From IMG/VR virus record IMGVR_UViG_3300028625_000001, positions 32,001 to 96,000 of that record: a DNA stretch of 64,000 bases; one strand, given 5' to 3'. The translations under genes and the position numbers were made by a program. The DNA comes from a virus. Positions 6,716 to 53,309 of the stretch are shown in pieces (within the stretch, counting starts at the first letter, position 1; each line of letters begins with the position of its first letter). The notes under the pieces were generated by a model. That model searched no databases, was not told where the DNA came from, and saw only the letters and a program-made list of their open reading frames with translations.

Positions 6716-6720
6716 CAGAC

Positions 6721-11075: not shown

Positions 11076-11089
11076 CTAGAAGGAGTTGG

Positions 11090-12255: not shown

Positions 12256-12329
12256 GGCGAGGTAGAGTAGCGGCCACTCGAAGGTCTCATAAGCCTTATA
12301 GGAGGGTTCAACTCCCTCCCTCGCTCCCA
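12256..12329 (+). tRNA. tRNA-Met family (anticodon CAT), CCA encoded
   Basis: Acceptor GGCGAGG/CCTCGCT, D-arm GAGT/ACTC, anticodon arm AAGGT-CTCATAA-GCCTT and T-arm GAGGG-TTCAACT-CCCTC, then C and CCA. Confidence 0.8.
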
Positions 12330-12382: not shown

Positions 12383-12468
12383 GGCGGGGTAGTCTAATTG
12401 GCAAGGCAGCGGTCTTGAAAACCGTCGGGCGAAAGCCTTTGAGAGTTCGACTCTCTCTCCCGCCGCCA
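12383..12468 (+). tRNA. tRNA-Ser (anticodon TGA), CCA encoded
   Basis: Acceptor GGCGGGG/TCCCGCC, anticodon arm GCGGT-CTTGAAA-ACCGT, long variable arm with GGC-GAAA-GCC and T-arm GAGAG-TTCGACT-CTCTC, then G and CCA. Confidence 0.8.
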
Positions 12469-29501: not shown

Positions 29502-29514
29502 GGGGGGATGGGTA

Positions 29515-32500: not shown

Positions 32501-35500
32501 CCGCAATAGCCCTCGACATCAACGGGTTAAGCTCAATCGTCTATGACATTACAATAGACGAAACGACTCAAGATGTGAATCAATGGATCTCCACCTTGAG
32601 CCAAAGGGCAGATTCCATCGAACTATCCATCTCTGGGATAAGCCAGACTGTAGGTGAGCACACTTCTTCAATTTCGCAAATGTCTATCGATATAAGCGGG
32701 ATTGAAGCCGTGGTGTATAACATAACCATTGATACCGTTACTCAAGATGTAGACCAGTGGGTTACGCAAATCAAGCAAGAGGCAGACGCTATCACCTTGC
32801 GGCTGGATCACGTCGTCATCGACGAAGACGATCAAACTCTTGAGCAACACGTATCTCAAATAAAGCTTGACATTTCGGGAATAGAATCGGTTGTCTATGA
32901 TATAACGATTGATACTGTTACGCAGGATATAAATCAGTGGGTTTCCACCCTTAGCCAAAGGTCAGATTCAATAGAGCTATCGGTCCAGGGACTTTCTCAA
33001 ACTGTAGGCGAACATTCCAGCTCGCTATCTCAATTAACCATAGACGTCAGTGGAATAGAGGGAGTCGTTTACAACATCCAGATTGGAGAAGATGCTCAAG
33101 ATGTTGACCAATGGATCTCTACTCTCAGCCAAAGAGCCGACTCTATCGAGTTATCTGTGTCTGGTTTGAGTTCAGATGTCGGGGAGAACTCAGCGAGTAT
33201 CAGTCAATTAGTCATTGATGTAAGCGGGATCGAGGGTGTCGTCTATGATATTACGGTGGGGGAAGCCACACAAAACGTTGACCAGTGGGTTTCTCAGATA
33301 AAACAGGAAGCCGACGCAATTACCCTTAGATTAGACCATGTCGTTATTGACGAAGACGATCTGACTCTCGAACAACACGTTTCCCAGATAAAACTAGATA
33401 TAAACGGCATAGAGTCAGTTGTCTACGATATTCAAATTGGGGAAACTACTCAAGACATTAATCAGTGGATATCTACTCTTAGTCAAAGAGCGGATTCTAT
33501 AGAGCTTAATGTGTCTGGCCTATCTCAAACAGTCAGCACGCATACAACAAATATCAGCTCGCTTCAGTTAGACGTAAGCGGGATTGAAGCAATAGTCAAA
33601 GATATTACCATCGGCACCGTTACTCAAGATGTAAATGAATGGGTAAGCCAGATAAAACAAGAAGCCGACGCCATCACTTTGAGGCTAGATAATGTAGTGG
33701 TGGACGAATCAACAAAGACAGTAGAACAACATCTCTCTCAGATCGTTTTAGATATAGATGGGATAGAGGCTATTGTTAAAGACATAACCATTGATGAAGT
33801 TACACAAGATGTTGATTTGTGGATCTCAACACTTAGCCAGAGAGCCGATTCAATTGAATTGTCGGTTCAGACCGTTAGCCAGACAGTAGAAGGACACACA
33901 ACAACGATATCCCAACTTTCAATAGATGTCAGCGGAATAGAAGGGATCGTCTACAACATCGAGATCGGAGAGGATCAATACGATGTCGATCAATGGATAT
34001 CGGTCCTCAGCCAGCGGGCAGACTCTATTGAGCTGTCTGTAACCAACCTAAGTGGTGATGTAGGAACTAATACGGCAAGCATTGGGCAGCTTACTATAGA
34101 CGTCGAAGGTATAAAAACCCTTGTTTATGATGTTACGGTCGGTGATGTTACTCATGATATAGATGAGTGGTTAAGTGCCCTTTCCCAGGAAGATATTTCC
34201 ATTAAACAGGATTTAGAGGCCGCGGCGCTGGCCCTGAGAAGTAAAATAGAGTCAGAGTTCACCAATGCAGAAACAGTATTGTATATTGTCGGAGATCCGC
34301 TTGACCATCAGACAGACACAGCGCCCATTAACTATGATAGAACAACTTCTATCTTCGACATAACTTACGACACCTTTGAAAGGCTCAATAACTTCGAGAT
34401 AGACGGGGTTACAGGGACAATAGAGTATTGGGCCAGTAGCATAAGCCAGACTACTCAAAATATTACCCTTAGAATAGACGGCATAGTCTATGATGGTGAG
34501 CAAAAGACTCTTGAACAAGCCTTTAGTGCAATAGAGATGAATATAGACGGCATAACTTCTACTGTCTATGACCTTGAGATCGACGGCACCACACAAAACA
34601 TCGATCAGTGGGTCTCCCAAATAAAACAGGAAACAGATAACATCACATTCCGACTGGATCACTTTGTTATAGACCAGGAAGATATGACCGCGGAGCAACA
34701 CGTTTCACAGTTGAAGTTAAGCATAGACGGCTTAGAGTCGGTTGTGTACTCGATTCAAGTCGATGAAATAACCCAAGACGTCGATTTATGGATCTCCACT
34801 TTAAGTCAAAGGGCCGACGGAATAGAGCTCAATGTTTCTACTCTTTCCAGCACAGTAGATGGTCATACAAGTAGTATCAGCTCCATTCAGTTGGATGTAG
34901 GCGCAATAGAACTGATTGTAAAAGACATAACTGTAGACGAAACGACTCAAGATGCCGACGAATGGATATCTCAGATCAAGCAAGAAGCTGACGCTATCAC
35001 TTTAAGACTTGACCATGTCATCATAGACGAAGATGACCAAACTTTTGAGCAACACATAAGCCAGTTCCGATTAGATATCGACGGAATAACCTCTATAGTC
35101 ACCGATATAACTGTTGGAGAAGAGACTCAAGATGTTGACCAATGGGTTTCTACCCTCAGTCAGAGAGCGGATTCAATAGAATTAAGTATTACCGGGCTCA
35201 CTTCAGACGTGGGGACAAATACTTCTAACATATCGCAACTTCTAATAGATGTTTCCGGTATCGAATTGATCGTAAAATCCCATACAATTGGCGAAACGAC
35301 TCAAGACCTTGACTTATGGGTTACGCAAATCAAGCAAGAGGCAGACGCTATCACGCTTAGATTAGATGGCATCGAGATTGACGAAGAGACTAAGACTATA
35401 GAACAACATCTTGCTCAAATAGTCCTGGATATTGATGGTATCGAGTCTATTGTTTACAACATCACCATAGGCGAAGACCAGTATGATGTCGATGGCTGGA

Positions 35501-38500
35501 TCTCTGTATTAAGCCAGCGCGCGGACGCTATCGAACTATCGGTATCTACCCTTGAAGACAATACGACGACTTCGCTATCTGCTTTAAGCATACAAGTCGG
35601 TGAGATCGAGGCTATTGTCTATGATATAGAAATTGGAGAAGATACCTATGATGTGAAAGAATGGGTAACTCTCCTGAAGCAGACAACAAATAGTATTTCT
35701 CTTGCTGTTGAAGGACTTGAAACCGATCTTGGAACTGCCGAATCAAACATCTCGCAGCTTCAAATTAGTGTCGGGTCAATTTCCTCAATAGTCCAGAATG
35801 TCGAGATCGAAGGAGTAACGAAAAACCTTGACGTCTGGGTGTCTGAGGTTAAACAAACTGCCGAAGGAATACTGGCGCGGGTAGACGCCATTTCCTACAA
35901 TGGGGAAGAGGGCACTATTGAAGAGCAGTTCGCCGCGCTATCGCTTGATATTTCTGGATTATCCTCAAAAGTCTACTCGATCAATATAGATGGAAACGTT
36001 CAGGATATAGACGAATGGTTAGCCACCCTCAATACTCAAGATGAAACTCTTGAAGAGTCTATAGACGACGCCGTAGATAGCTTAAGGATAAAGATAAACT
36101 CAGAGTTTGCCGATGCCAGCACCTTAATGTATATTGCCGGAGACCTTCAGGACCATCAATCTCTTCTATCACCTATTAGTTATGACAGGGTAGATTCTAT
36201 ATTTGATGTTGCATATAACACTCTCGATAGACTAAACCTCTTTGAAGTCAACGGGATAACCGACACAATAGAGTATTGGGTGAGCAGCATTAACCAGACG
36301 GCAAACAATATAGAACTCAGGGTAGACGGCATAACTTATAATGGCGAGACAAAGACTCTTGAGCAAGCCTTCAGTGCAATAGAACTGGATATAGATGGGA
36401 TTACGTCAACAGTCTATAATATCGAGATCGACGGGACCACCCAGGACATCGATCAATGGATCTCCCAGATTAAACAAGAAGCGGACAACATCACCCTTAG
36501 ACTGGATCATGTGGTTATCGACGAGAACGATCAAACCCTTGAACAACATATCAGCCTTTTAAAGATTGATGTCGATGGCATAACTTCAATAGTTACCGAC
36601 ATCACCATTGATGAAGAAACCTATGATGTAAATCAGTGGGTATCGGTTTTGAGCCAGAGATCAGACGCTATAGAGTTGTCCGTGTCTACCCTTTCCGGGG
36701 ACGTCGCCTCGGCTATTTCTCAACTAACCATCGACGTAAGCGGTATAGAAGGCGTGGTTTATAATATCACGATTGATGAGACTACCCAAAACATCGATGA
36801 ATGGGTTTCTCAGATAAAACAAGAGGCAGATGCAATAACTCTTCGTCTCGACCACGTTGTCATCGGCGAGGACGACCAGACTCTCGAACAACATGTGTCT
36901 CAGATAAAGATAGATATTGGCGGAGTAGAATCGATTGTTTACGATATCCAAATCGGAGAAACTACCCAAGACGTCAATGAGTGGGTCTCTCAGATAAAAC
37001 AGGAATCTGACGCCATTGAATTAAGGGTCGAAACCGCGGAAGGAACTATAACATCTCATTCATCTTCCATTAGTTCATTAAACCTTTCGGTAGATGGCAT
37101 AGAAGCAGTCGTCTACAACATTGCAGTAGAAGAAGAAGGCGACACCCACGACGTAGACGAATGGCTTGCCTTATTCCATATTAGAGAAAATGCGATAGAG
37201 CTGTCTGTTACAAACCTTTCAACCACTGTATCTTCTAATACTCAATCCATCTCTTCTATTGAGGTTGACGTAGGCGCTATAGACTTAAGAGTCCAAACGG
37301 TTGAAAGCACCACATCAACCCACACGACACAAATCTCCGACCTCGACATTGCGCTAGGCACAATCACGGCGACAGTCGGGAGCATAGAAGATACGGTAGA
37401 TGGACATACAAGCAGTATAAGCCAAATAGAACTTGACATTAGTGGAATTACCAGCACGGTTCAAACGATAAGCGATACCGTGGGCGGCCATACTTCTCAG
37501 ATATCACAGATAAACCAGGATATAGGCTCTATAGAACTTGCCGTACAGGAAGTCGAAGAGGATGTCGGGACAAATACGTCAGCAATAGCCCAGATAGAAT
37601 TGAGTATTGACGGGATAACCACCTCAATAAGCACGTTGGAGACTACCGTCGGTGGACATACCTCTCAGATATCTCAAATTGAACTAGATATAGGGACAAT
37701 CGAACTAAGTGTATTGTCTATTTCTTCTACCGTAGGGCAACACACGATCGACATTTCGGCAATTAACGTCTCTCTCGGAGAGATAACTACAATTGTTGGG
37801 ACGATAGAAGAAGACCTCGACCAAGAAGGCGACCCCTTAACACAGACCTATAACTACTCTTTATTCCAGCAACTTGCCGATTCTATCGCTTTGAGAGTTG
37901 TCGCAGTTGATGAGTTTGGGGACCCGCAAGCCACGGAACTCATTATTGAAGACGGACTCGTAACTATCGCCGCGGACCAATTTAGAGTGCATGGCGACGC
38001 AATGATAAACGGGAGTGTCAGCGGCGATAAGCTCAAGGCAAACAGTGTTGAGACCAACAAGTTAATTGTTTGGCCCGACATACCCATAGACGACGAGACG
38101 GCGGAATATTGGGGGACTTCATTATTAGGCGCCCTGGGGATTACACTCCCCGACGGTATGGACGAGGTTACAAAAGAAAACCTAGCCGATCTACTTCCCC
38201 CAGGGACCATACTTGCCGAATATTTTGCAGTCGGTCAAAAGATGGTTGTCGGAAATAAGGTAGTTATCGAAAGGGACTTAGACGACTATGGTCATATGAC
38301 CGTCTTCGATAGCGACTATGAAATTGTCGTCAAAGTAGGAGAAAATGCGACTCCTGATGGCCGCGACGGAATGTTTATTAATACCGGCGGCGCTTTCCAA
38401 GTTGGTCAACTTGTAGATCCTAACTATCTAAGATACTATAACGGCATACTGACTATTAAAGGAGTAATAGAAGCTACCGGCGGTTTCTTCGATGAGGTTG

Positions 38501-41500
38501 TTTATGTCGGAGTCGAAGAAGGCGAGCGAATACTTCTTGATGGAGTTAATAAGCTGATAAGGTCTGAGAACTACCAGGCGGGAACTGCCGGGTTCGAATT
38601 GAACGGCGATGGTACTGCCGAGTTCAATAACATAACTGTCCGCGGGAGCGTCCACGCCAGCGAAGGTTCGATAGACGGTGTTATGACGATCGGAGATATA
38701 GAGATCGGAGTCGGAGTCAACGAAGGCGCGGGCACTGGCTGGTTCGTTGATGAGAATAATTACTGGTACTCTAATCTAGGTTTCTCAATAGGCAATGGCA
38801 CTACAAATAAGTTCCAGTATTCGCCGGAAGGCGGGCTAGAAATAGTTACCACTAAGATTTTAGTAGATATAGACGAGAACATCTTAATCGATAGTGAAAA
38901 CAAGGTTATTGCTATCGGTACGATGACCGGATTCGATACTGCCAGCGGGAACGGTGTCTTTACAGGAATGTATAATAGCAAGCCCTCTTTTAAGGTGGGG
39001 CAGAATGATCCCGACGGAGACCTTCAGAAAGGGATCTCTTATTATGACGGCGTCTTTAGCTTTATGGGAGCCGTTATATCTATGGAGAACCTTGATGACC
39101 CGACCCAAGAAGCGTTATCAGGCTATGAAGTAATGATCTCTCCCGCGGGAGATAGCGTCTATAATGACGGAACCACAAGAACTCCGGCATCAATAAACTT
39201 CACAGCGACGCTACTAAGAAAAGTAGATAACACATTAGTTTCAAGCGGACTCGCTTATTACTGGACTGTGGAAACCGATGGCGGTATAACCATACCATCC
39301 GGCGCGCTAACCGCAACGGCAACGGTCAATACGTCAAATATGACCGGTCCGTCGGTTATAAAAGTCAAAGTCACTTACCAGGAGAAAGACTATTATGGTT
39401 ATGCAAGTCTAGCCTATTCCGAAAAAGGAACCGGCGGAGACGATGCGGTGATCTACTGGCTTACTTCCAGTAAGGAGAAAGTAGTTTACAATCCGAACAC
39501 CGGGCAGTACGATGGAGGAGCGAGCTCAAGTATAGTCTTTACCGCAAAAGAAGCCGTTGGACAGGTTGTACAAAATAAGACTGGTTTATACTGGAAGGTC
39601 AACGGAGTTAATGCGGAACCTGACGCTAATGGTTATCAAAAGACTGTTGCGGTAAGCAGTCAGACTACAACGACGATAGAGATATATGCCGACTTTGCCA
39701 GAGAACAATTACTAGATACCTTTACTGTTCCTGTCATAACTGAAGGTTCTGACTCATACTCGATTATTCTGTCGAATGAACATCAGACAGTTGAGTCTAA
39801 TTATGACGGTACTTCTCCAACCCCTGCTAGTATCTCCACTCAGGTAAAGCTTTATAAGGGAACGACGGAGATAACTTCGTTTACAGTCGAGGCGACCGGA
39901 GCAACAGTAGATGGAAAAACAGTCACTGTAACTATCCCTTCTAGTTCTACTATGGCAGGTTCTCAAGACATAACCGTCAAAATAGACAGTACGATAATTG
40001 GCGTAAAAACTCTCACCTGGTCTAAGTCTCCGCAAGGAGAGCCGGGAATCGGCGGGGAAGATGCTCAAGCATTATTCCTTACGGCGGACGCTCAGATATT
40101 CAAGGCAGATCAGGACAACACAATCACCTCTGGAGATATTACTCTTGAAGCTTTCCTTCAGAATCTGTCCGGCACTATTACCTGGACTGCAAAGAACCAG
40201 AGTAATAATGACATCACACTAACCGGAACGGGGAGTACCAGAACCCTTACCGCAGCCAACTTTGGTGCAAGCGATTGGGTTAAGATAACTGTTTCTCTCG
40301 GTGGATTGAGCGATTCCATAACCATTGTCAGAGTTAAGGAAGGGTCTAATGCGATAGTAGGTTTCCTAACCAACGAGTCGCATAATGTGCCTTGTGACTC
40401 TGACGGTTCTAATCCAGACTTCACGGGAGCTTCTTCTATTCTTAAGATATTTAGGGGGAACACGCAAGAGACTTCTGGTTGGTCATGTTCCTGGTCTTTG
40501 ATTACAGGTACGGCGACCGGGCAGGCAAGTACGACAACCCTGACTAACGACACAATTACTATACAGTCGCTTTCAACCGACGTGGCCGTTTATAGATGTA
40601 CCGCCACGAAGTCCGGGCAATCATCAGTTGTAAAAGACTTTACCATAACTAAGTCTTATGCCGGAGACCCTGGAGATCCTGGCGCGGACGCGACATCTTA
40701 TTACATCACTTCAACAAAGGACAAGATTGTTTACGATCCCGGGACAGGGCAGTATGACGGCGGGGCCACAACAACCGTTACCCTCTCTGGTTGGAGAAAG
40801 GAAGGCACTAACTCTCCACAGGCGACAAGCTTCTACTGGAAACGGGGAGCAACTGCTTTAGGAGCAGCCACATCCAAAACAATTACCGTGCCTACCGATA
40901 CAAGTTCTTCATTCACAATGACAGCTTATATCGATTCTAGTTACACCTATCTAGCGGCCTCCTTTACTGTCGCTATCGTTGCTTCTGGCGAACCCGGAGA
41001 CCCTGGTGGAGACGGAGTGACAAGATATATTTCCGCGACAAAGGATAAGGTAGTCTATGACCCGAACACGGGGTTATACGATGGTTCGGCTTCGACAACA
41101 ATAACGTTTACGGCCAAAAAGGTAGTTGGTGACGGAAGCCCTGCTAACGAGACAGTTTACTGGAAAAGAGGGAGTAGCGCATTAGGTTCTGGCACGAGCA
41201 AATCGGTGGTTGTGCCGACGGATACGAACACCTCATTTACTATGTATACTTATGCGGACTCGGGTTATACCATACTTTTGAGTTCGTTTACGGTATCGGT
41301 AGTTACTTCCGGGGCCAGTATCTACGCCTTGCCGACGGCAAGTGCTTATCACGTAGAATACAACGGTTCGTCTTACTCGCCGTCCTCAGTAACCATCACT
41401 CCGGCATTGAAACAGGGTACAACTTCATTGTCTTTTACCAACTGGAGGATTAAGTATATAAACATCAGTGGGGACTTAATAACGATCAATAGGAGTACGT

Positions 41501-43059
41501 CATCCGCTTATAGCTTCAGTATGTCTCTAGCTCAGTTTATAGTACCAAAAACCGACGTAGTACTCATCATCGAGATCGATTATGGCGGGGTAACATATAC
41601 TGCCAGACTAATAATCGTTGTCGAGGACACCAGGTATGGTTGGCTGTCACAATGGACCGGGACAACACTGATCGGTGGAACGTATATCGTAACTCCCACT
41701 GCCTTCATGGGAACCGACGCTAATAATGGAGTCCTCATAGACGCTAACGGTATTCTTGGAAAGAAGAGCGGGGCAAAAACTTTTGAGCTTACAGATGATG
41801 GGGATCTTGATGTCGCTTCAGGTCGGATAGGAGGATCTTCCGGCTGGTTAATTGAAACTCTTTCAGGAAAAGGAAGAATTTCAAGTACGGGAATAGAGTT
41901 AGTCTCCGGTGATGACGCATATATTCAGGCCGGTAGTTCGGAGGAGAACTATCGAATGAACGCAAATGGGCTTGAGTATCGGCGGCTTATAAAAGCCAGG
42001 ATCAATAATATAAAGGCTTATGCTGAATGTGACGCCTCGGCTTCAGCGATAATAGAAGTTTGGTATCGCTGGACTGAAAATTATTCCGACGCATCGCCCA
42101 CCTGGTCTGGTTGGCAACACCCGGACGACTTGAACTTTTCGGCTTCTTTTACCTGGTATATATCTCCGACAGATCCAATTTACGGCGCCGATATGACAGA
42201 CTTTGCAATGCAATTTAAGTTTGTCATATACTCAACTTCTGTATTCAAGGCCAAGCTCCAGAAATGGAATGTATATATTAACGACGAACCAAGCCTAACA
42301 GTCGAAATAGACACTATGGAACAATTCCAAGCACATGCAGACGCTACAACGAGCGGGATCACTTATAGTAGTGGCGGCTATGTCCAACCAACAAGCTATT
42401 CCAGCTCTGGAACTTACGTCACAAAGGCAAGCTCTATCAGAGAAGAGATCGAACCAGGCACAGATATTTCAAAAGTTCTACACTCTATCCATAAAGGGAC
42501 AATCTATTTTGATGGAACTAGCGGAGATATGTCTAAAAGAATCCAACATAACAAGCATATTATGCCAACCCGGTACGACGTAATTTTAAACGAAAGCAAC
42601 TCCCAAATATGGAAAAGTAGCTTTAGCACCGGGACTAACTACACCCGAAAGATAGAAGTGACTAAAGCAGAAGATTATTTCGACATCTTGTTTTGTGCTG
42701 AAGAAGGAACCACCAGTACAAACATTGGGACTATCGGTATGCAATCAAACAACACTTGGTTAATCCTTGCAAACGTAGCTAATTGTTCGAAAATCGAGTT
42801 TGATGTTTATCATTGGGGCGGCTTCCGCATATTTAAAGAACACGTTTCGTACAGTTTTTCATCTCCGTATACAGGAGATATTGGATATAAATACTATGAC
42901 GGCGTTCTTTACTTAAGTTGGAACGGGGACACAACCTCCGAATATCAAATAGAGGGGCTTGTTGGGATGGTTGCTGCCAGAGATATTATTAAATGGACTT
43001 CAGGAACGAGATACCCACTCACAGGGAATTTCAACTACGAAATCCAGGTTTGGCAATAA
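29515..43059 (+). CDS. giant tail fibre or host-adhesion protein (about 4514 aa)
   Basis: ATG 29515 lies 7 nt after GGGGGG. It contains about 7 FN3-like modules (30.0-31.7 kb), a 6-kb array of 57-60-aa repeats, then Ig-like triplicated modules (YW/YY/RY-x-T/S-S/A-x-K-D/E-K-V/I-VY-N/D-P-x-TG-x-YDG) and a C-terminal globular region. Confidence 0.8.
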   Translation: MNTLDKYVQKHIVKYSGAGPISKGGGASSNLSMSLDTAALAGRIDDIEEQLKLIAASLKNYHTLSITFENIDLPLVDIHVSGGMAVLSGYTEVIPETTITVDTSLWVAGVNKYIVWYNGTIVVADEILEGYKLLAYIIIPEDWDGTVSNSYKDGAAYISIAGPIDELDPYYGEVLILELDAEAGPFFCIVHASWDPLGSPDVSHYILSYTIDGNNWENISTANPAASFEAPHNIQVAAKVQAVFNNGRKTHWSATEIIQTPGDDTIPLPVTGLEVTSQFGIIKAIWDESTDIDFDTFEIQVARDDQFTDPEVTFTTNTSYAFAGEPEATYYIRVRVIDYSSNTSLWSDTIEIETVMGDGNTPAAPTGLTLVPILEDETSYITATWDRNEELDIVSYELAISYDQTNWVDYQTPKTTKTIEVVGGVTLYAKVRALDNEGLVSAWSDIVETTTAHDTEAPNIPVGLTITNSFGIVYFTWTANGEADFSHYIIQISQTDQFSTYDEVIQRTNSYSFSGIPGTTYYVRIKSVDYSGNESDWSSIASTTVTAGDGQPPATPTGLSLTTYLQSYSSYIEATWDENEEVDLLGYQIAWSLDQLKWNILSVNSPEANFSVPGNSTIYVKVKALDVEGLASQWSDAESITSTEDEEAPATPVLLSNIPLYARALIEIEEQEESDFSHFLVSYKDRSFTTSTTNIEIPLDPGESGVSVSIKAVDLSGNESPALAVSASARTLSEAEEEFFELINKVHGGSTNTETIAYITDDLVDHMNITKPTAFDRSGLLKDDVYDTIDRIDNIDYGDLTLPMESVFERIDTDFISVGSSLFEARSKIFDIEIGGEIKNIDEWVGVINTDVSDITTRIDFINYGELTGTIETVLGSVYSNVSAISEKIYDIVIGEITLDIDEWIDQINSDLSGVMTRINAVVYGSLTDTIEDVLAAVHGDISGIETKVFDIEIGEVTHDIDEWMGLLNGDVAGIISRLENVSYNETIDTIETQIAAIALDINGLSSIVYDITIDETTQDVNQWISTLSQRADSIELSISGISQTVGEHTSSISQMSIDISGIEAVVYNITIDTVTQDVDQWVTQIKQEADAITLRLDHVVIDEDDQTLEQHVSQIKLDISGIESVVYDITIDTVTQDINQWVSTLSQRSDSIELSVQGLSQTVGEHSSSLSQLTIDVSGIEGVVYNIQIGEDAQDVDQWISTLSQRADSIELSVSGLSSDVGENSASISQLVIDVSGIEGVVYDITVGEATQNVDQWVSQIKQEADAITLRLDHVVIDEDDLTLEQHVSQIKLDINGIESVVYDIQIGETTQDINQWISTLSQRADSIELNVSGLSQTVSTHTTNISSLQLDVSGIEAIVKDITIGTVTQDVNEWVSQIKQEADAITLRLDNVVVDESTKTVEQHLSQIVLDIDGIEAIVKDITIDEVTQDVDLWISTLSQRADSIELSVQTVSQTVEGHTTTISQLSIDVSGIEGIVYNIEIGEDQYDVDQWISVLSQRADSIELSVTNLSGDVGTNTASIGQLTIDVEGIKTLVYDVTVGDVTHDIDEWLSALSQEDISIKQDLEAAALALRSKIESEFTNAETVLYIVGDPLDHQTDTAPINYDRTTSIFDITYDTFERLNNFEIDGVTGTIEYWASSISQTTQNITLRIDGIVYDGEQKTLEQAFSAIEMNIDGITSTVYDLEIDGTTQNIDQWVSQIKQETDNITFRLDHFVIDQEDMTAEQHVSQLKLSIDGLESVVYSIQVDEITQDVDLWISTLSQRADGIELNVSTLSSTVDGHTSSISSIQLDVGAIELIVKDITVDETTQDADEWISQIKQEADAITLRLDHVIIDEDDQTFEQHISQFRLDIDGITSIVTDITVGEETQDVDQWVSTLSQRADSIELSITGLTSDVGTNTSNISQLLIDVSGIELIVKSHTIGETTQDLDLWVTQIKQEADAITLRLDGIEIDEETKTIEQHLAQIVLDIDGIESIVYNITIGEDQYDVDGWISVLSQRADAIELSVSTLEDNTTTSLSALSIQVGEIEAIVYDIEIGEDTYDVKEWVTLLKQTTNSISLAVEGLETDLGTAESNISQLQISVGSISSIVQNVEIEGVTKNLDVWVSEVKQTAEGILARVDAISYNGEEGTIEEQFAALSLDISGLSSKVYSINIDGNVQDIDEWLATLNTQDETLEESIDDAVDSLRIKINSEFADASTLMYIAGDLQDHQSLLSPISYDRVDSIFDVAYNTLDRLNLFEVNGITDTIEYWVSSINQTANNIELRVDGITYNGETKTLEQAFSAIELDIDGITSTVYNIEIDGTTQDIDQWISQIKQEADNITLRLDHVVIDENDQTLEQHISLLKIDVDGITSIVTDITIDEETYDVNQWVSVLSQRSDAIELSVSTLSGDVASAISQLTIDVSGIEGVVYNITIDETTQNIDEWVSQIKQEADAITLRLDHVVIGEDDQTLEQHVSQIKIDIGGVESIVYDIQIGETTQDVNEWVSQIKQESDAIELRVETAEGTITSHSSSISSLNLSVDGIEAVVYNIAVEEEGDTHDVDEWLALFHIRENAIELSVTNLSTTVSSNTQSISSIEVDVGAIDLRVQTVESTTSTHTTQISDLDIALGTITATVGSIEDTVDGHTSSISQIELDISGITSTVQTISDTVGGHTSQISQINQDIGSIELAVQEVEEDVGTNTSAIAQIELSIDGITTSISTLETTVGGHTSQISQIELDIGTIELSVLSISSTVGQHTIDISAINVSLGEITTIVGTIEEDLDQEGDPLTQTYNYSLFQQLADSIALRVVAVDEFGDPQATELIIEDGLVTIAADQFRVHGDAMINGSVSGDKLKANSVETNKLIVWPDIPIDDETAEYWGTSLLGALGITLPDGMDEVTKENLADLLPPGTILAEYFAVGQKMVVGNKVVIERDLDDYGHMTVFDSDYEIVVKVGENATPDGRDGMFINTGGAFQVGQLVDPNYLRYYNGILTIKGVIEATGGFFDEVVYVGVEEGERILLDGVNKLIRSENYQAGTAGFELNGDGTAEFNNITVRGSVHASEGSIDGVMTIGDIEIGVGVNEGAGTGWFVDENNYWYSNLGFSIGNGTTNKFQYSPEGGLEIVTTKILVDIDENILIDSENKVIAIGTMTGFDTASGNGVFTGMYNSKPSFKVGQNDPDGDLQKGISYYDGVFSFMGAVISMENLDDPTQEALSGYEVMISPAGDSVYNDGTTRTPASINFTATLLRKVDNTLVSSGLAYYWTVETDGGITIPSGALTATATVNTSNMTGPSVIKVKVTYQEKDYYGYASLAYSEKGTGGDDAVIYWLTSSKEKVVYNPNTGQYDGGASSSIVFTAKEAVGQVVQNKTGLYWKVNGVNAEPDANGYQKTVAVSSQTTTTIEIYADFAREQLLDTFTVPVITEGSDSYSIILSNEHQTVESNYDGTSPTPASISTQVKLYKGTTEITSFTVEATGATVDGKTVTVTIPSSSTMAGSQDITVKIDSTIIGVKTLTWSKSPQGEPGIGGEDAQALFLTADAQIFKADQDNTITSGDITLEAFLQNLSGTITWTAKNQSNNDITLTGTGSTRTLTAANFGASDWVKITVSLGGLSDSITIVRVKEGSNAIVGFLTNESHNVPCDSDGSNPDFTGASSILKIFRGNTQETSGWSCSWSLITGTATGQASTTTLTNDTITIQSLSTDVAVYRCTATKSGQSSVVKDFTITKSYAGDPGDPGADATSYYITSTKDKIVYDPGTGQYDGGATTTVTLSGWRKEGTNSPQATSFYWKRGATALGAATSKTITVPTDTSSSFTMTAYIDSSYTYLAASFTVAIVASGEPGDPGGDGVTRYISATKDKVVYDPNTGLYDGSASTTITFTAKKVVGDGSPANETVYWKRGSSALGSGTSKSVVVPTDTNTSFTMYTYADSGYTILLSSFTVSVVTSGASIYALPTASAYHVEYNGSSYSPSSVTITPALKQGTTSLSFTNWRIKYINISGDLITINRSTSSAYSFSMSLAQFIVPKTDVVLIIEIDYGGVTYTARLIIVVEDTRYGWLSQWTGTTLIGGTYIVTPTAFMGTDANNGVLIDANGILGKKSGAKTFELTDDGDLDVASGRIGGSSGWLIETLSGKGRISSTGIELVSGDDAYIQAGSSEENYRMNANGLEYRRLIKARINNIKAYAECDASASAIIEVWYRWTENYSDASPTWSGWQHPDDLNFSASFTWYISPTDPIYGADMTDFAMQFKFVIYSTSVFKAKLQKWNVYINDEPSLTVEIDTMEQFQAHADATTSGITYSSGGYVQPTSYSSSGTYVTKASSIREEIEPGTDISKVLHSIHKGTIYFDGTSGDMSKRIQHNKHIMPTRYDVILNESNSQIWKSSFSTGTNYTRKIEVTKAEDYFDILFCAEEGTTSTNIGTIGMQSNNTWLILANVANCSKIEFDVYHWGGFRIFKEHVSYSFSSPYTGDIGYKYYDGVLYLSWNGDTTSEYQIEGLVGMVAARDIIKWTSGTRYPLTGNFNYEIQVWQ
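31740..37830 (+). repeat. in-frame tandem coding repeats with higher-order duplication of about 1.85 kb
   Basis: Alternating units of two types: QW(I/V)STLSQRADSIELSV...SISQL.IDVSGIEGVVYNI.I and QWVSQIKQEADAITLRLDHVVIDEDDQTLEQHVSQIKLDI.GIESVVYDI. A leader block (…SEF.NAET.LYI.GD..DH…) recurs at about 34230 and about 36080. A 38-nt exact repeat occurs at 32758-32795 and 35318-35355. Confidence 0.85.
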
Positions 43060-43691: not shown

Positions 43692-44120
43692 ATGCGGTTA
43701 AAAACAGCAAATAATGCAGGTTCAACTTTAATGGCAGCAATCAGCGAATTAGATGTCTCCTTTACGGTGGCTGATGCGTCTTCTTTCCCCGACGTTCCCT
43801 TTCGTTGCACAATCCATAAAGGAGATCCCGCGCAAGGAGAAATTATTGAAGTAGGAGCTAAAAATGGTAATACATTTTCTTCAATTGATCGAGGTTTAGA
43901 AAACACAGTTGCCGCCGCTTGGGAAATAGGAGACAAGATAGATGTCTTGATTACGGCCGGAATGTGCGAAGAGTTGGTTTCACAAGACGAGATGGAAGCT
44001 CATACAGAAGCAGAAAGACCACATCAATTGATAGATCAAAGAGATTCAGCCGTTTATAACTATGGACTAAAAATTAACGAAGATGGAGTCTTAACTCTTG
44101 TTTTAGAGGAGGTAGTCTAA
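43692..44120 (+). CDS. tail-fibre-like protein (N-terminal fibre-type domain)
   Basis: The pattern ...VADASSFPDVPFRCTIHKGDPAQGEIIEVGAKNGNTFSSIDRGLENTVAAAWEIGDKI resembles conserved N-terminal domains of phage fibre and baseplate proteins. This rests on recall only. Confidence 0.45.
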   Translation: MRLKTANNAGSTLMAAISELDVSFTVADASSFPDVPFRCTIHKGDPAQGEIIEVGAKNGNTFSSIDRGLENTVAAAWEIGDKIDVLITAGMCEELVSQDEMEAHTEAERPHQLIDQRDSAVYNYGLKINEDGVLTLVLEEVV

Positions 44121-44471
44121 ATGCTCGAAATTCCACTCCCAACAAATGAACAAATAGAGTCGCTTATTAAAATACACGGAATCTCCAGCGCTCCGGTTAC
44201 TGGAACTAAAACCCTCGTTCCAGGGGTGGCAACTGAAGTGTTTGCTGGCGCCTCAAAGAAGGCGAATAGAACACTGATGACTATAAAAAACATTAGTAAA
44301 TATTCTAACCCTTTAAGGCTTAGATTAGGTGAGTCAACAGTTTCAGACACAAAGGGTTTTATTATCGAACCTCAAGCAACCTTAGTTTTGTATTTTAACC
44401 CAGATGTTGAGACTTCAATTTATGCAATACCAGAAACTAACGCTCTGTTGATTGAGGTGATCGAGATATGA
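44121..44471 (+). CDS. hypothetical protein
   Basis: 116-aa ORF with RBS GGAGG, coupled to its neighbours. Confidence 0.5.
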   Translation: MLEIPLPTNEQIESLIKIHGISSAPVTGTKTLVPGVATEVFAGASKKANRTLMTIKNISKYSNPLRLRLGESTVSDTKGFIIEPQATLVLYFNPDVETSIYAIPETNALLIEVIEI

Positions 44472-44689
44472 CTTATAAAATTACAGACTTAGAAGACGGA
44501 AGAATAGAAATTGAAATAAGTTTTTTAGACGAGGATATTGATCTTGTTGGTAAAACGACAATTATTGGCGAAGAAAATGATGCCGAAAAATACCTTCCGT
44601 TTTTTGAAAAGGATCTAAGAGTCAATTACTCTTATTTATTTCCAACTCCAGAGCCAGAGCTGATATTAGAAGAAGGTGATTTTATATGA
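44468..44689 (+). CDS. hypothetical acidic protein
   Basis: 73-aa ORF with ATGA overlaps on both sides. Confidence 0.5.
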   Translation: MTYKITDLEDGRIEIEISFLDEDIDLVGKTTIIGEENDAEKYLPFFEKDLRVNYSYLFPTPEPELILEEGDFI

Positions 44690-45861
44690 AGTACATCTCC
44701 GGCAAATATGTTCAAGGCGAACTCCTTGAAACCAGCAGGGAGATCGAAGACTGGATAACCGATTACTATGTGGCGAATGGCGCGGTCACCGACGCGACAA
44801 TAAGAAATGACATGGATAGAAGAATTAGAGACGTTTCGTTCGGCAGGAACGCGGTGATGTTTGACAACTCAAACTTTCCGTCGATCATGGTCCGTTTTCC
44901 GTTTATGAAGCTGAAAGAAATTGATTCTTCGTGGGCTGATTCCCCACATCAGTCATTTATAAAGAACGGAGCTGTGAAGAATGAGTTTTGGGTGGGGAAA
45001 TATCTCCCGATCGTAAACGGGTCCGGCGAGTCCGCGCGCGCCGTCTCCTTACGAAGGAGAGATCCGGCAAACAATATCAATTTCGACAACTCAAGACTGG
45101 CTTGTACTCAAAAAGGGACTGGCTGGCACTTGTTGACCAACGCTGAGTGGGCGTTAATTCTCCTTCTCGCTCATAAAAACCAGTTCTTCACTCGTGGAAA
45201 CAACAGCTACGGGAAGGACTATGTAAAAACGGGCGAAACTGCCGAGGCAACATATATGAGCGGCGGAACTGTTTATAGAACGGCCACGGGTACGGGGCCG
45301 GTGGCATGGTCGCATGACGGAACTCCGTTCGGTGTCTTCGACCTGAATGGGAATGTCAATAAGTGGGTCGCGGGATTGCGGTTGAATGGCGGAGAGATCC
45401 AGATATTTGAGAACAACAACGCTGCCGACGGGACAAAAAATCATTCCGTTTCTAGCGACCAATGGAAGGCAATTCTCCAAGACGGTTCTCTGGTAGCGCC
45501 CGAGACAGAAGGAACATTGAAGATGGACGCAACCAACGTAGATGGAAGCGGGAATATCGTCATCGGCACTACTGCCGATAACGTCTCAAACGGAACAACT
45601 TACGCGACGACCGCTTTCAAAAACATAGCGGCAAAGGGAGAAACAACCATACCGGCCATCCTGAAGCAGCTCGGTCTATTCCCTCAAAGCGCAAACTATC
45701 CGCATGGAACTGGATATATGCGGAATCTCGGTGAGCGTTTGCCCTATCGTGGCGGTAACTACAACGGCACGTCCTATGGTGGTTTGTCGAACTTGTATCT
45801 CAACTACGACCGCACGAGCGTGCTTACGATTCTGGGGTTTTCGCTCGCTTGGCAACCGTGA
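44686..45861 (+). CDS. DGR target (variable) protein, FGE-sulfatase / C-type-lectin fold
   Basis: GWHLLTNAEWALI and GVFDLNGNVNKWV motifs are typical of the FGE/CLec fold. The C-terminal 38 codons contain the VR. Confidence 0.85.
   Translation: MKYISGKYVQGELLETSREIEDWITDYYVANGAVTDATIRNDMDRRIRDVSFGRNAVMFDNSNFPSIMVRFPFMKLKEIDSSWADSPHQSFIKNGAVKNEFWVGKYLPIVNGSGESARAVSLRRRDPANNINFDNSRLACTQKGTGWHLLTNAEWALILLLAHKNQFFTRGNNSYGKDYVKTGETAEATYMSGGTVYRTATGTGPVAWSHDGTPFGVFDLNGNVNKWVAGLRLNGGEIQIFENNNAADGTKNHSVSSDQWKAILQDGSLVAPETEGTLKMDATNVDGSGNIVIGTTADNVSNGTTYATTAFKNIAAKGETTIPAILKQLGLFPQSANYPHGTGYMRNLGERLPYRGGNYNGTSYGGLSNLYLNYDRTSVLTILGFSLAWQP
45735..45849 (+). repeat. DGR variable repeat (VR)
   Basis: 115 nt aligned to the TR without gaps show 9 mismatches, 8 of them at TR adenines. 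It lies in-frame at the 3' end of the target gene. Confidence 0.9.
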
Positions 45862-45937
45862 TCTGTGCTTTGCGCTCTGTAATCTGCAAAAAAACCAAAG
45901 GGGGAGGAGCAGCATAGAACTCAAGATATTACAAAAG

Positions 45938-46246
45938 ATGTATGATCTGATCCTGTATATATACCCCGTACTCGCACAATTCCCGAAATCAGAGAAACAT
46001 ACTCTCGCGGCGGAAATCAAGAAGACTTGCTTCGAGATCCTTAAGCTCATCACAAGAGCAAACAAGGAGAAACAGAAGCTCGAACATTTGAGGCAACTCG
46101 ACGCTAGCCTAGAACTTCTCAGAACTCAAGTTAGGTTGAGCGTCGATCTGAAGTTCATACCGACGAAGAAATACGAAGTCATCTCCAGACATCTTGCAGA
46201 AGTCGGAAAGATGCTCGGGGGATGGATAAGGTCATCTAAGTTCTAA
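45938..46246 (+). CDS. avd: DGR accessory variability determinant (Avd), four-helix-bundle family
   Basis: MYDLILYIYPVLAQFPKSEKHTLAAEIKKTCFEILKLI...VGKMLGGWIRS matches the Avd / 23S-rRNA-IVS-protein pattern. A GGGGAGGAG RBS at about 45900 suggests a possible non-ATG start near 45914. Confidence 0.8.
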   Translation: MYDLILYIYPVLAQFPKSEKHTLAAEIKKTCFEILKLITRANKEKQKLEHLRQLDASLELLRTQVRLSVDLKFIPTKKYEVISRHLAEVGKMLGGWIRSSKF

Positions 46247-46268
46247 AGATATGGGAGAGACCCATTTA

Positions 46269-46383
46269 GCGTTTGCCCTATCGTGGCGGTAACTACAACA
46301 ACACGTCCAATGCTGGTTTGTCGAACTTGAATCTCAACAACGACCGCACGAGCGTGAATACGAATCTGGGGTTTTCGCTCGCT
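46269..46383 (+). repeat. DGR template repeat (TR)
   Basis: AAC/AAT-rich 115-nt copy of the VR, lying between avd and the RT. Confidence 0.9.
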
Positions 46384-46538
46384 CGTCCAATCCCGAAAAG
46401 ACAGAAGTTGGAGATTCACGGATCTCTTTCCAGCGCTTAGAGGAACAAGGGGGTCTCTCCCACGCCAGACGGCGAAAAATCGGACTACTCCGCGGCCTAT
46501 GGCAAAACCATGCGCCGCGGTTATCTTGAGGTAAAAAG
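46384..46538 (+). other. TR-RT spacer, likely the structured part of the DGR RNA
   Basis: Non-coding 155 nt with a strong hairpin CCGCGGCCTATGG-CAAAA-CCATGCGCCGCGG at about 46489-46520. It sits in the position of the BPP-1 spacer (Sp) RNA. Confidence 0.4.
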
Positions 46539-47609
46539 ATGAAACGATACAGCAATATATATCCCCTGATATATGACTTCGAATCGTTGCTAACGGCGTA
46601 TAGAAACGCGAGAAAACTCAAGAGATACAGAAATGAGGTGCTTAAGTTCTCCGACAGGCTAGAAGAAAACCTTATTCTTATTCAAAATGAGCTTGTCTGG
46701 AAGACATATAAACAATCTCCTTATAGAGAGTTCTTTGTAAACGAACCTAAAAGGAGATTGATTATGGCCCTGCCATTCAGAGATAGGGTCGTCCAGTGGT
46801 CTATTTATCAGAATCTTTCTCCGATGCTTGAGAGGAAATATATCTCCGACAGCTATGCTTGCAGAAAAGGAAAAGGTGCGCATCAAGCTCTCGGCTGCTT
46901 ACGGGAATGGCTCGGGAGTATTCCTGACCCAAAGAGATGGTATTACCTGAAACTGGATATTCATAAATACTTTTACCGAGTCAATCACAGAATACTTCTA
47001 TCTATTTATGAGAAACATTTCCCTGACGAAGACCTCCTCTGGCTCCTTGAAAAGATTATCACGGCCAATGACGGGAATCTCGGCCTTGTTGACGGAAGCA
47101 CGGATTATGACAATCGAATATGCGGCGTCGGGATGGCGGTCGGGAATCTTGTTTCTCAAATGAGTGCGAATGTCTATCTCAACGAGCTGGATCAGTTTGC
47201 AAAGAGAGAGCTTCAGATCCCGCACTATACCAGGTATATGGATGATGTAATCTGCCTCTCGTCGAGCAAAAGACAGCTCCATGAATGGAGATGGGCGATG
47301 GAGGAATTTGTAGAGACGCGTCTGACTCTTAGAAGTAACTCAAAGACCCAAATAAGGCCAGTCACAAACGGTATTGATTGGGTGGGTTACAGGCTCTGGC
47401 CAAACGTTGTCAGACTTAGGAAAAGCTCGGCTAAGAGGCTCAGGAGACGGTTAAAGTCTCTTAGGGATAAGTTTGTGAGCGGCACAATCACGTTTCAAGA
47501 GTTCGATAGTTCTTTCCAATCATATATGGGAATGTTGAAGCACTGTTCAAGTGACGCTTTGAAAGAAAGCATCTGCGAGATGTTGGGAGGTCCGTTTTTA
47601 TGGAGGTGA
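46539..47609 (+). CDS. DGR reverse transcriptase
   Basis: RT motifs include YTRYMDDVICLS (YxDD) and the DGR-diagnostic VGNLVSQ (I/LGxxxSQ) in motif 4. 356 aa, adjacent to the TR. Confidence 0.92.
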   Translation: MKRYSNIYPLIYDFESLLTAYRNARKLKRYRNEVLKFSDRLEENLILIQNELVWKTYKQSPYREFFVNEPKRRLIMALPFRDRVVQWSIYQNLSPMLERKYISDSYACRKGKGAHQALGCLREWLGSIPDPKRWYYLKLDIHKYFYRVNHRILLSIYEKHFPDEDLLWLLEKIITANDGNLGLVDGSTDYDNRICGVGMAVGNLVSQMSANVYLNELDQFAKRELQIPHYTRYMDDVICLSSSKRQLHEWRWAMEEFVETRLTLRSNSKTQIRPVTNGIDWVGYRLWPNVVRLRKSSAKRLRRRLKSLRDKFVSGTITFQEFDSSFQSYMGMLKHCSSDALKESICEMLGGPFLWR

Positions 47610-50806: not shown

Positions 50807-51496
50807 TCTCACGATGACCTCTTGTAGCTTATGTAGCCCGTATTTGCTTTCATCCTTTAATTCCTCTGCAAGCTTTTTTATGTCGTTGTATGGAACGGTC
50901 TGATCTCCCGGCTGTGGGTTGTATTGTTGTAGCACTATCCTCTTTGCCCACCCTAATATGGTGGTTATTTTATAGAACTCTTCAGGCGAGACGTATCCAG
51001 GATACATAGTTATCCTGAACTCATAGTCTTTGGCATACTTTATGACTGTTTTGACTGATTGACACAGGTCATAGCCGCTCATTACTCTATCCGGTTGAAA
51101 AACCCCGTCGGAATAGATCTCCATCGGTCCTTTGATGTCCATAGCCACATAGTCTATGAAGGGCAATATCTCCTTCAATATCTGAGTGTCGGAACCGTTA
51201 GTGTCTACCTTTATCAAAAGACCAGGGACTTCCTTTTTAATAGCCCAGATATACTTGAGTAGGTCTTTGTTTATTGTAGGCTCGCCGCCGGAGAACACGA
51301 CGGCCTCAATCTTATTCTCCCGACTCTTCAAGTAATCAAGAATCTCTATAAAAGGAACCTCTTCCCCACTACTATCCCAAAGATGTTTGTTGTGGCAATA
51401 CTTACAGGCAAAATTACACCCGTAGGAAAAGATTGTTGTTGCTATCTTCCCCGGGTAATCCACCAGGCTTACTTTCTCGTACCCTGCTATCTTCAT
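50804..51496 (-). CDS. nrdG: anaerobic ribonucleotide reductase activating protein (radical SAM)
   Basis: MKIAGYEKVSLVDYPGKIATTIFSYGCNFACKYCHN (CxxxCxxC). ATG 51496 follows GGGAGAGG. The longer ORF-track start at 51661 is rejected. Confidence 0.85.
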   Translation of the reverse strand: MKIAGYEKVSLVDYPGKIATTIFSYGCNFACKYCHNKHLWDSSGEEVPFIEILDYLKSRENKIEAVVFSGGEPTINKDLLKYIWAIKKEVPGLLIKVDTNGSDTQILKEILPFIDYVAMDIKGPMEIYSDGVFQPDRVMSGYDLCQSVKTVIKYAKDYEFRITMYPGYVSPEEFYKITTILGWAKRIVLQQYNPQPGDQTVPYNDIKKLAEELKDESKYGLHKLQEVIVR

Positions 51497-53309
51497 GTAA
51501 CCTCTCCCTTCCCGGCAGGTAGGTTCTTCTTTCCTTAAATTCCTCCTGTTTCCCTTTGTTCCAGTTCTGAACTGGACGATAATATCCAGTAATCCTCGAA
51601 TAGACTTCTGTCTCTCTCCCACATATAGGACATTCATATTGCTCGCCGTTGATATATCCATGATCTGGGCAAACAGAATACGTAGGTGAGATCGTTATAT
51701 ACGGGATTCGATAATTGGTAAGTATTTTCCTTACCAATCCCATTGTAGTTCGCCAATCTGTTATCTTTTCCCCCAAGAAGGTATGAAAAACGGTACCGCC
51801 TGTATAAAGTGTCTGAAGTTCTTCCTGTAGGTCTAAAGCTTCGAATACATCGCTGGTGAAACCGACCGGCAAATGGGTTGAGTTAGTGTAATACGGATCT
51901 CTCTGTCCCGCGGTAATGATCTCGGGATATTTCATTTTGTCTATCCTGGCTAATCTATAAGCCGTAGACTCCGCGGGAGTCGCTTCGAGGTTATATAGAT
52001 TCCCCGTGCTCTCCTGATAATCCCCCAGCTTAGTTCTCATGAAGTCTAAGACTCTGACGGCGAAAATCCTCGACTCCTCTTTATAGATCGGCTGCCTTAC
52101 CCATTTAGCATTGAGACATGCTTCGTTCATTCCGACTAGTCCTATAGTCGAGAAGTGATTGTCATAATGCTGAAGATATCTCTTCGTGTATGGATACAAC
52201 CCTCGCTGGTTAAACCGGTTTATTGTTTCTCTTTTTACTTCAAGGGAGTCTTTGGCTAGATTCATCAAAACGTCTAGTTTGTTGAAAAACTCCACTTCGT
52301 TTTCACTAAGATATGCTAGTCGCGGCAAATTGATGGTGACTACTCCAATAGACCCGGTAAAAGCATCCGACCCGAACAATCCCCCGCCTCGTCTCTTCAA
52401 TTCTCGACGGTCTAGGGTCAATCTACAACAAAGACTCCTTACATCGTCGGGATTAAGATCGGAGTTTATAAAGTTTTGGAAATAGGGGGTCCCATATTTG
52501 CCCGTTATTTCAAAAAGGAGCCGGGTGTTTTGGTTGTCCCAATCAAAATCTTTCCCGATATTGTACGTCGGGATAGGATATTGAAAGCCGCGGCCATTAG
52601 CGTCTCCTTCGTCGTATAGCTCCAGGAGAGCCCTATTTATCATATCCGATTCTCTTTGACAGGACCCATATGTAAAGCTTTGTTCTTTTCCGCCTATTAT
52701 TGCCGGTTTCTCTTTATAGCTCTCTGGTATTGTCCAGTTAAGAGTTATGTTGGAAAAGGGAGATTGTGTCCCCCAGCGAGAGGGTGTATTCAGTCCGAAT
52801 AGGAATGATTGTATGCACTGTTTGACTTCTTTATAAGATAGGTTGTCTATCTTGACGAAGGGGGCAAGATAAGTGTCGAAACCGGAGAAAGCCTGCGCAC
52901 CGGCCCATTCGTTTTGCATAATCCCCATAAAGTTGACCATCTGGTTTATAAGCGTGGATAAGTGTTTCGCCGGAGAGCTGGACAGTTTCTGAGAAACGCC
53001 GCCTAATCCTTCGCGTATGAGTTGTTCGAGGTCCCACCCGGCGCAATAACCCGAAAGCATTGAAAGGTCATGTATATGAAAGTCTCCATTCCTATGCGCA
53101 TTGGCAATATCTTCGTTGTAAACCTTACCCAGCCAGTAATTAGCCGTCATTGCACCTGCTTCATGGAGGATAAGTCCTCCAATCGAGTAAGTGACAGTCG
53201 AACTTTCCTTAGTCCTCCAATCGGTTTCAGTCAAATAACCATCAATAACTTTTTCGACATCTATAGTCTTTTTGTCTTCCATAGAAAAAGTCGGCCCGTA
53301 GGCCGACAT
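51414..53309 (-). CDS. nrdD: anaerobic ribonucleoside-triphosphate reductase (class III)
   Basis: 631 aa with a C-terminal Zn ribbon (CPDHG..CPICG) and a glycyl-radical motif (SRITGYYRPV). The rest is NrdD-like throughout. Confidence 0.9.
   Translation of the reverse strand: MSAYGPTFSMEDKKTIDVEKVIDGYLTETDWRTKESSTVTYSIGGLILHEAGAMTANYWLGKVYNEDIANAHRNGDFHIHDLSMLSGYCAGWDLEQLIREGLGGVSQKLSSSPAKHLSTLINQMVNFMGIMQNEWAGAQAFSGFDTYLAPFVKIDNLSYKEVKQCIQSFLFGLNTPSRWGTQSPFSNITLNWTIPESYKEKPAIIGGKEQSFTYGSCQRESDMINRALLELYDEGDANGRGFQYPIPTYNIGKDFDWDNQNTRLLFEITGKYGTPYFQNFINSDLNPDDVRSLCCRLTLDRRELKRRGGGLFGSDAFTGSIGVVTINLPRLAYLSENEVEFFNKLDVLMNLAKDSLEVKRETINRFNQRGLYPYTKRYLQHYDNHFSTIGLVGMNEACLNAKWVRQPIYKEESRIFAVRVLDFMRTKLGDYQESTGNLYNLEATPAESTAYRLARIDKMKYPEIITAGQRDPYYTNSTHLPVGFTSDVFEALDLQEELQTLYTGGTVFHTFLGEKITDWRTTMGLVRKILTNYRIPYITISPTYSVCPDHGYINGEQYECPICGRETEVYSRITGYYRPVQNWNKGKQEEFKERRTYLPGRERLHEDSRVRESKPGGLPGEDSNNNLFLRV

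Follow-up and report, generated by a model that had tools for sequence, protein, structure and literature searches.

Evidence for a BPP-1-type diversity-generating retroelement with a TaqVP-like target in the tail-fiber module of an uncultured phage

Is the reverse transcriptase (RT) gene in a 64,000-nucleotide (nt) stretch of viral DNA (positions 32,001 to 96,000 of IMG/VR record IMGVR_UViG_3300028625_000001; hereafter, the window, in whose numbering all coordinates are given) part of a diversity-generating retroelement (DGR), and if so, has this element been at work, and on what kind of protein? An initial annotation, made from the sequence alone, proposed a complete DGR that actively diversifies a receptor-binding protein. 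Here we conclude that the locus is very probably a complete DGR of the BPP-1 type, lodged in the tail-fiber module of a ~113-kb siphovirus-like phage. Systems of this kind are already well known, and every DGR-defining feature that can be tested in sequence is present, only the hairpin that follows the variable repeat in some DGRs, a non-universal feature, being absent.

A repeat search of the window identified a direct repeat of 116 nt, with 92% identity between the copies and a spacing of 534 nt, that consists of the variable repeat (VR; 45734-45849, plus strand) and the template repeat (TR; 46268-46383, plus strand). The initial annotation had placed the pair, as 115-nt repeats, at 45735-45849 and 46269-46383, and its only correction is the additional nucleotide at the 5' end. 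Base-by-base comparison recovered the 9 reported differences, 8 of which are located at TR adenines (46300, 46301, 46309, 46330, 46339, 46357, 46358 and 46364). With 27-28 adenines in 115-116 nt, the probability that at least 8 of 9 mismatches fall on adenines by chance is ~3e-5. The sole mismatch at a non-adenine site, C46313 in the TR versus G45779 in the VR, translates into A365G in the target protein, whereas the changes at adenines, read in the target frame, are N361G, N364Y, N371Y, N374Y, N380L and N382I, that is, the proposed conversion of AAC and AAT codons into those for G, Y, Y, Y, L and I.

The coding properties of the two copies differ. The VR comprises codons 350-388 of the 391-codon target open reading frame (ORF), at its 3' end, and thus encodes the C-terminus of the protein; the TR is non-coding, with a TAG codon preceding it in the frame of the target. 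Codon analysis of the TR shows 10 AAY codons and 7 codons with a single adenine, all adenines being confined to codon positions 1 and 2, with none at position 3. Within the repeat, a stop codon cannot be reached by adenine mutagenesis, and the number of possible protein variants is about 1e16. The terminal 18 nt of the repeat (CTGGGGTTTTCGCTCGCT; 45832-45849 in the VR, plus strand) are A-free and G+C-rich, resembling an initiation of mutagenic homing (IMH) site. This segment occurs only twice in the window, compared with 0.04 occurrences expected, and the two copies diverge directly after it, the VR continuing into a sequence that is absent from the TR, as first described. In 8 related VRs, the A-free end is invariant, except for a single G/A site, at which the cognate TR carries the change too. 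A search of the 64-kb window for further VRs, with the TR adenines treated as wildcards, detected none, either at full length or with 40-mers.

Related assemblies, found by RT- and protein-based look-ups, served as a proxy for reads, and contigs were recovered that carry cassettes 92-100% identical to that of the window. The related contigs contain 8 distinct VR/TR pairs with near-identical TRs, and 94 of the 98 mismatches in these pairs are at TR adenines. Thus, 94 of the 224 adenine sites differ (42%), compared with 4 of the 704 non-adenine sites (0.57%; Fisher test, 2e-60). The pooled spectrum of changes at adenines is mixed, with A>G (42) and A>T (38) followed by A>C (14). In two cases, L003 with L054 and L046 with L052, identical TRs are accompanied by different VRs, with 10-17 adenine sites differing in each, and 13-17 VR sites distinguish cassettes whose identity elsewhere is at least 98.5%. 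Because shared identical TRs accompany different VRs, the lineage has diversified recently. Furthermore, non-adenine differences among the TRs of the relatives are mirrored in the cognate VRs, for example, at positions 17, 41, 51, 54, 86 and 101 of L001, which shows concerted evolution of TR and VR with scrambled adenine positions. A contig scan of metagenomes for additional VR copies yielded only 4 contigs and 1 new VR. As an observation in its own right, 14 of the 15 adenine changes in the VR of L003 (L003:874-989) are A>G, unlike the mixed G/T/C spectrum pooled elsewhere.

The same pattern is seen at the protein level among 12 full-length members of the 90% cluster of the target (at least 90% identical). 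The mean number of residue types per codon is 4.9 for the A-containing TR codons and 1.17 elsewhere. All columns with four or more residue types (354, 358, 360, 361, 364, 369, 371, 373, 374, 375, 378, 380 and 382) correspond to A-containing TR codons. The claim of active receptor-binding-protein diversification, therefore, stands for the lineage, on the strength of the 8 VRs and of the 94 of 98 mismatches at TR adenines, whereas the receptor-binding role of the target is a probable one that is weighed below.

The coordinates of the genes agree with the proposed target-avd-TR-RT order. The RT (356 amino acids (aa); 46539-47609, plus strand) contains YMDD and VGNLVSQ, the latter including the GNLVSQ motif that had been singled out as DGR-specific. 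Compared with solved structures, the best match is bRT of BPP-1 (8ub7; E = 7.6e-46), in which IGSLTSQ aligns with VGNLVSQ, whereas retron-type and group II intron RTs match with E = 4e-19 or weaker. Family searches yielded PHROG 1423 (E = 1.6e-128) and Pfam RVT_1 (E = 3.3e-19), and the protein scores far under the cutoffs of the NCBIfam group II, retron and Drt models. All relatives of this RT, down to 24% identity, carry VR/TR-like repeats. Judged by these sequence affinities, the RT is of the DGR type.

The avd gene (102 aa from the ATG; 45938-46246, plus strand) lies inside a longer ORF, 45704-46246. Its product matches bAvd (PF22296, E = 1e-33) and PHROG 3206 ('Avd protein of DGR'), and reaches 123.7 bits on the NCBIfam equivalog model DivGenRetAVD, the cutoff of which is 80, in full agreement with its original identification as Avd. 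The ATG at 45938 has no obvious Shine-Dalgarno sequence in the window or in L014. The cassette sequences form two clades; in the clade II relatives, avd starts at a GTG 24 nt upstream that is preceded by AAAGGGGGA.

The target (391 aa; 44686-45861, plus strand), described initially as an FGE/C-type-lectin-fold protein, matches Pfam FGE-sulfatase (E = 1.7e-5, above the cutoff) and PHROG 2889 (E = 8.6e-101), and belongs to a family of 1525 homologues at E<=1e-5. A profile built from 55 of these homologues detects PDB 5VF4 with E = 6.8e-97, with the VRs of the two proteins in alignment; 5VF4 is TaqVP, the DGR variable protein of a Thermus aquaticus prophage (PMC6328139). The structure prediction that had been suggested as a check supports the same fold: the AF2 model of the target (pLDDT 92.4, pTM 0.93) retrieves 5VF4 as the top Foldseek match (TM 0.86, E 1e-41, 35% identity), followed by TvpA and Mtd. 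Judged from the profile and the predicted structure, the target is a TaqVP-family homologue with a C-type-lectin/FGE-like fold.

The RNA around the TR appears to be structured as well. The predicted fold of 46240-46545 (z -2.45) includes a 12-bp long-range helix, present in both the minimum free energy and the centroid structures, that joins 46252-46263, which lies 3' of the avd stop codon and 5' of the TR, with 46451-46462, downstream of the TR. The 3' strand of the helix is followed by a 4-bp stem-loop, CGCC-AGAC-GGCG (46463-46474), and an A-run, AAAAA (46475-46479), so that this side of the element spans 46451-46479; both parts are encoded on the plus strand, as is the whole spacer (Sp) region between the TR and the RT gene (46384-46538). 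In an alignment of 10 loci with RTs 34-98% identical to that of the window, the helix and the stem-loop are kept via compensatory changes: 91.8% of the cells are paired, compared with 40-62% in slid controls, and 8 of the 16 pairs show changes on both sides. Two further hairpins of the spacer, both on the plus strand, were identified in this analysis, one at 46409-46427, also with compensatory changes, and one at 46490-46520, in which UAUGG/CCAUG is replaced with UGUGG/CCACG in clade II.

In the DGR ribonucleoprotein of BPP-1, the 'cPRT Stop' consists of an avd:Sp duplex, a stem-loop and A-minor adenosines, and similar duplexes, 13 bp on average, have been predicted in 207 other DGRs (bioRxiv 10.1101/2023.10.23.563531). 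The predicted helix, stem-loop and A-run of the window match this layout. The trinucleotide A46448-G-G precedes the stop duplex, as A56-G57-C58 does in BPP-1, within a putative primer region of the spacer (46431-46450, plus strand); by analogy, synthesis would be primed at A46448, and G46371 would be the base templated first. A TR:Sp template-primer duplex was sought with RNAduplex in the 10 loci, and no pairing consistent across the relatives was detected. Scanned against Rfam at E<=1, the 43-50 kb segment yielded a chance match only, and a scan of 44.3-48 kb for sigma-70 promoters and terminators found no more sites than in shuffled sequences.

These features are compatible with the following course of events. 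The RT-Avd complex would bind an RNA that extends from the avd 3' end through the TR and across the spacer, in which the helix 46252-46263/46451-46462, together with the stem-loop and the A-run, would correspond to the 'cPRT Stop' of BPP-1. The cDNA would be self-primed from the spacer, and the RT would copy the TR into it faithfully except opposite adenines. At the 3' end of the target gene, the VR (45734-45849) would then be replaced, by homing, with the mutagenized cDNA, the direction of transfer being set by the A-free 3' segment and the unique sequence downstream of it. The expected outcome is a TaqVP-like tail protein of C-type-lectin fold whose ligand-binding face can take up to ~1e16 forms. 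Such diversification of the VR most likely enables the phage to switch to other receptors on the host surface.

Three other explanations of the locus deserve consideration. An ordinary tandem duplication that diverged at random, next to an unrelated RT of a group II intron, a retron or a defense system, would be in line with the sub-threshold matches of the RT to the group II, Drt and retron models. The adenine specificity across the 8 loci, the far closer affinity of the RT to bRT, the presence of the Avd equivalog and the VR/TR-like repeats found throughout the RT relatives make this explanation extremely improbable and rule out a chance duplication combined with a non-DGR RT. The next alternative, which we consider improbable to a much lesser degree, is that the DGR is a fossil or is silent, such that diversification belongs to the past and the VR is now fixed in this genome. 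Several observations speak for a fossil: only 8 of the 27-28 adenine sites differ between the VR and the TR of the window; the VR contains one ordinary point mutation; and the upstream GTG start of avd has been lost, the same codon being ATA (45914) in the window and in L014. Furthermore, VRs recur. The VR of the window is found also in L015, an independent ENA assembly; the same VR, P0125, recurs in 8 contigs that come from at least 3 samples; and L046-L048 share one VR in 3 runs. The recurrence across assemblies implies that the consensus in the relatives was stable over those samples, with the turnover too slow to blur it. Two other observations count against our main reading: 4 of the 98 mismatches in the related pairs are at non-adenine sites, and, in contrast to BPP-1, neither a hairpin nor a cruciform follows the VR (DNA fold of 45825-45940, z +1.39, no inverted repeat). 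Finally, diversification, as seen in assembly consensus sequences, is documented for the lineage, and current activity in this individual genome is presumptive. Against the fossil scenario, the RT, Avd, the TR and the RNA helices are all intact, and clade I relatives that have the ATA codon nonetheless carry distinct VRs (L014 and, judging from 97-98% avd identity, probably L003 and L004). The 13-17 VR differences between cassettes that are nearly identical elsewhere also count against a silent element.

An active DGR might also act on a protein other than the primary receptor binder, namely, an accessory tail-borne lectin that recognizes glycans or the extracellular matrix, or a protein with a non-adsorption role. 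This possibility is unlikely but has a better claim than a fossil element. The assignment of the target as a receptor-binding protein derives from its tail-module context and its homology to Mtd and TaqVP, and the role is hence a presumptive one. The main receptor binder could be either the 4521-aa fiber-like protein, the C-terminal 379 aa of which are common to the other phage backbone described below, or the product of the ConA-like lectin ORF. On the other side, the homologues of the target include Mtd of BPP-1, an experimentally demonstrated tropism determinant according to the cited literature, to which the model of the target can be matched structurally. The target gene is also translationally coupled within the tail module, and two small ORFs travel with it, in the manner of a structural sub-module. 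We favor a DGR that has been active in this lineage and acts on a probable receptor-binding tail protein.

The comparison with related contigs provided information on the mobility of this DGR. A high-identity block (44656-47591, plus strand) is 94% identical to L001 and L014, whereas the flanks are at most 70% identical or non-homologous, and the tail module of L001 and L014 is different, with a 2063-aa tape measure, Sipho_tail and Prophage_tail proteins. We distinguish backbone A, the ~113-kb phage with the 3538-aa and 4521-aa proteins, and backbone B, a Sipho_tail/Prophage_tail-type phage or prophage. The two backbones have in common only the small ORFs orf116 and orf73, the cassette, the C-terminal 379 aa of the fiber protein and one further ORF. 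Between these 379 aa (41941-43059) and the C-terminus of the 1479-aa Prophage_tail protein of backbone B, identity is 73%; the latter protein is encoded downstream of the DGR, whereas the 4521-aa protein of the window is encoded upstream, and the similarity suggests a shared host-recognition domain. In the target, avd and RT genes, the identity between the cassettes of L049 (backbone A) and L046 (backbone B) is 98.5-100%, with a sharp fall at both junctions, the target ATG and a point 18 nt short of the RT stop codon. Such near-identity in two unrelated backbones implies that the cassette is swapped as a module, and given that each of the two cassette clades includes both backbones, at least two recent exchanges are implied.

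The TR itself varies among these cassettes. The TR of the window and those of L001, L003, L004, L005 and L046 differ at 17 sites, and several of the differences are A<->T or A<->C (positions 13, 24, 57, 90 and 96). In the TR of L001, GG occupies a site where the other TRs contain AA, and the VR of the window also has GG at this site. Sequence comparisons of this kind hint that TRs occasionally might receive mutagenized sequence by VR-to-TR back-conversion. The combined proposal, that the cassette is a discrete module frequently exchanged between co-occurring unrelated phages and that its TR is subject to back-conversion, is one that we advance tentatively. If back-conversion indeed occurs, the template itself, and not only the VR, evolves by the chemistry of the DGR.

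Upstream of the cassette, the tail module includes an ORF for a 3538-aa tape-measure protein (PhageMin_Tail; 15291-25907), the 4521-aa fiber-like ORF (29494-43059) and an ORF (43692-44120) that matches tail-fiber PHROGs; the ConA-like lectin ORF is located 3' of the RT gene. A tape-measure protein of this size would imply an exceptionally long tail, and the 4521-aa protein contains long internal repeats. The replication module, on the minus strand, encodes NrdD, an exonuclease, a UvsX-like recombinase, a primase and DnaB. The length of related contigs, ~113.4 kb, suggests a genome of ~113 kb for this siphovirus-like phage.

The two small ORFs directly precede the target gene on the plus strand: orf116 (116 aa; 44121-44471), the stop of which overlaps the start of the next ORF by 4 nt, and orf73 (73 aa; 44468-44689), which overlaps the target start codon (ATGA). 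The overlap of orf116, orf73 and the target by ATGA implies translational coupling within the tail module. Neither of the small ORFs has a Pfam or PHROG match. In backbone B, homologues of both (59% and 53% aa identity, respectively) immediately precede the target, and both are syntenic with the target in the distant DGR loci L006/L017, L007, L010 and L016, of which L006/L017 are from Desulfosporosinus (a Desulfosporosinus acididurans genome is among these loci) and L016 is from a metagenome-assembled genome (MAG) of Chloroflexota. Both orf116 and orf73 thus accompany the target in distant loci, and they probably belong to the same structural sub-module.

With respect to the host, the NrdD-like anaerobic ribonucleotide reductase (51414-53309, minus strand) makes an anaerobic host or habitat probable. 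A scan of GTDB genomes detected relatives of the RT with at most 66% identity, in a Chloroflexota MAG and in Desulfosporosinus. Two members of the target cluster are labelled Thermotogota MAG, a hint too weak for assigning a host. Elsewhere in the window, a HEARO RNA (Rfam RF02033, 134 bits; 8657-8864) is immediately followed by an ORF for a 417-aa HNH endonuclease (8898-10151; PHROG 2214, E = 1.6e-136). We take this arrangement (8657-10151) to be the layout of an IscB/omega-RNA-type element inside a phage genome. Also present in the phage are genes for a tmRNA (tag VKPKLRTDNPLLERAAA) and for five tRNAs, one of which has a four-base anticodon, 'cata', according to ARAGORN; these RNA genes are located at 3996-4295, 4444-4517, 6638-6716, 11005-11076, 12256-12329 and 12383-12468.

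The current understanding of DGRs is unchanged by these results. What they add is one more natural phage DGR, well documented, with a TaqVP-type target and eight natural VR alleles, and the covariation indicates conservation of the BPP-1 'cPRT Stop' RNA architecture in a phage lineage far removed from BPP-1. The near-identical cassettes in unrelated backbones point to tropism-diversifying modules being traded between phages that probably share a host, which bears on the evolution of phage host range in anaerobic communities.

Among known systems, no phage matches the cassette at the nucleotide level, as determined by a megablast search of 50,697 phage records. Homologues of the target, annotated as 'Mtd-like / SUMF1-EgtB-PvdO family', occur in the deposited phages Pseudomonas phage Bise, Faecalibacterium phage FP_Lagaffe, Clostridium phage Saumur and Bacillus phage BalMu-1, with at most 40% identity over 86-89% coverage. 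The DGR of BPP-1 (mtd-avd-TR-brt) shares with the DGR described here the order of target, avd, TR and RT; an RT homologous to bRT, with the [I/V]GxxxSQ motif aligned; an Avd protein of the four-helix-bundle type, a signature already recognized in the initial annotation; a VR at the C-terminus of a C-type-lectin-fold tail protein; adenine-specific mutagenesis with the AAY codon design; and a predicted long-range duplex up- and downstream of the TR, with a stem-loop and adenosines resembling the cPRT Stop. The two systems differ in that the relationship between the target and Mtd is only a remote one (Foldseek TM ~0.30, E 4e-3); the 5' strand of the stop duplex, which is inside avd in BPP-1, is just past the avd stop codon here; there is no hairpin or cruciform downstream of the VR; IMH and IMH* are indistinguishable within the repeat, the copies diverging only past the identical 18-nt A-free segment; and the ~113-kb, siphovirus-like phage contrasts with the small podovirus BPP-1. 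The closer relative of the target is TaqVP (PDB 5VF4; PMC6328139). The two proteins are only 35% identical, and the present one comes from an uncultured phage lineage of a probably anaerobic habitat, but they share the family and the fold over the whole length (profile E 6.8e-97, TM 0.86), a C-terminal VR of ~40 residues with an invariant strand at the end, and a setting in a prophage or phage DGR of BPP-1-like layout.

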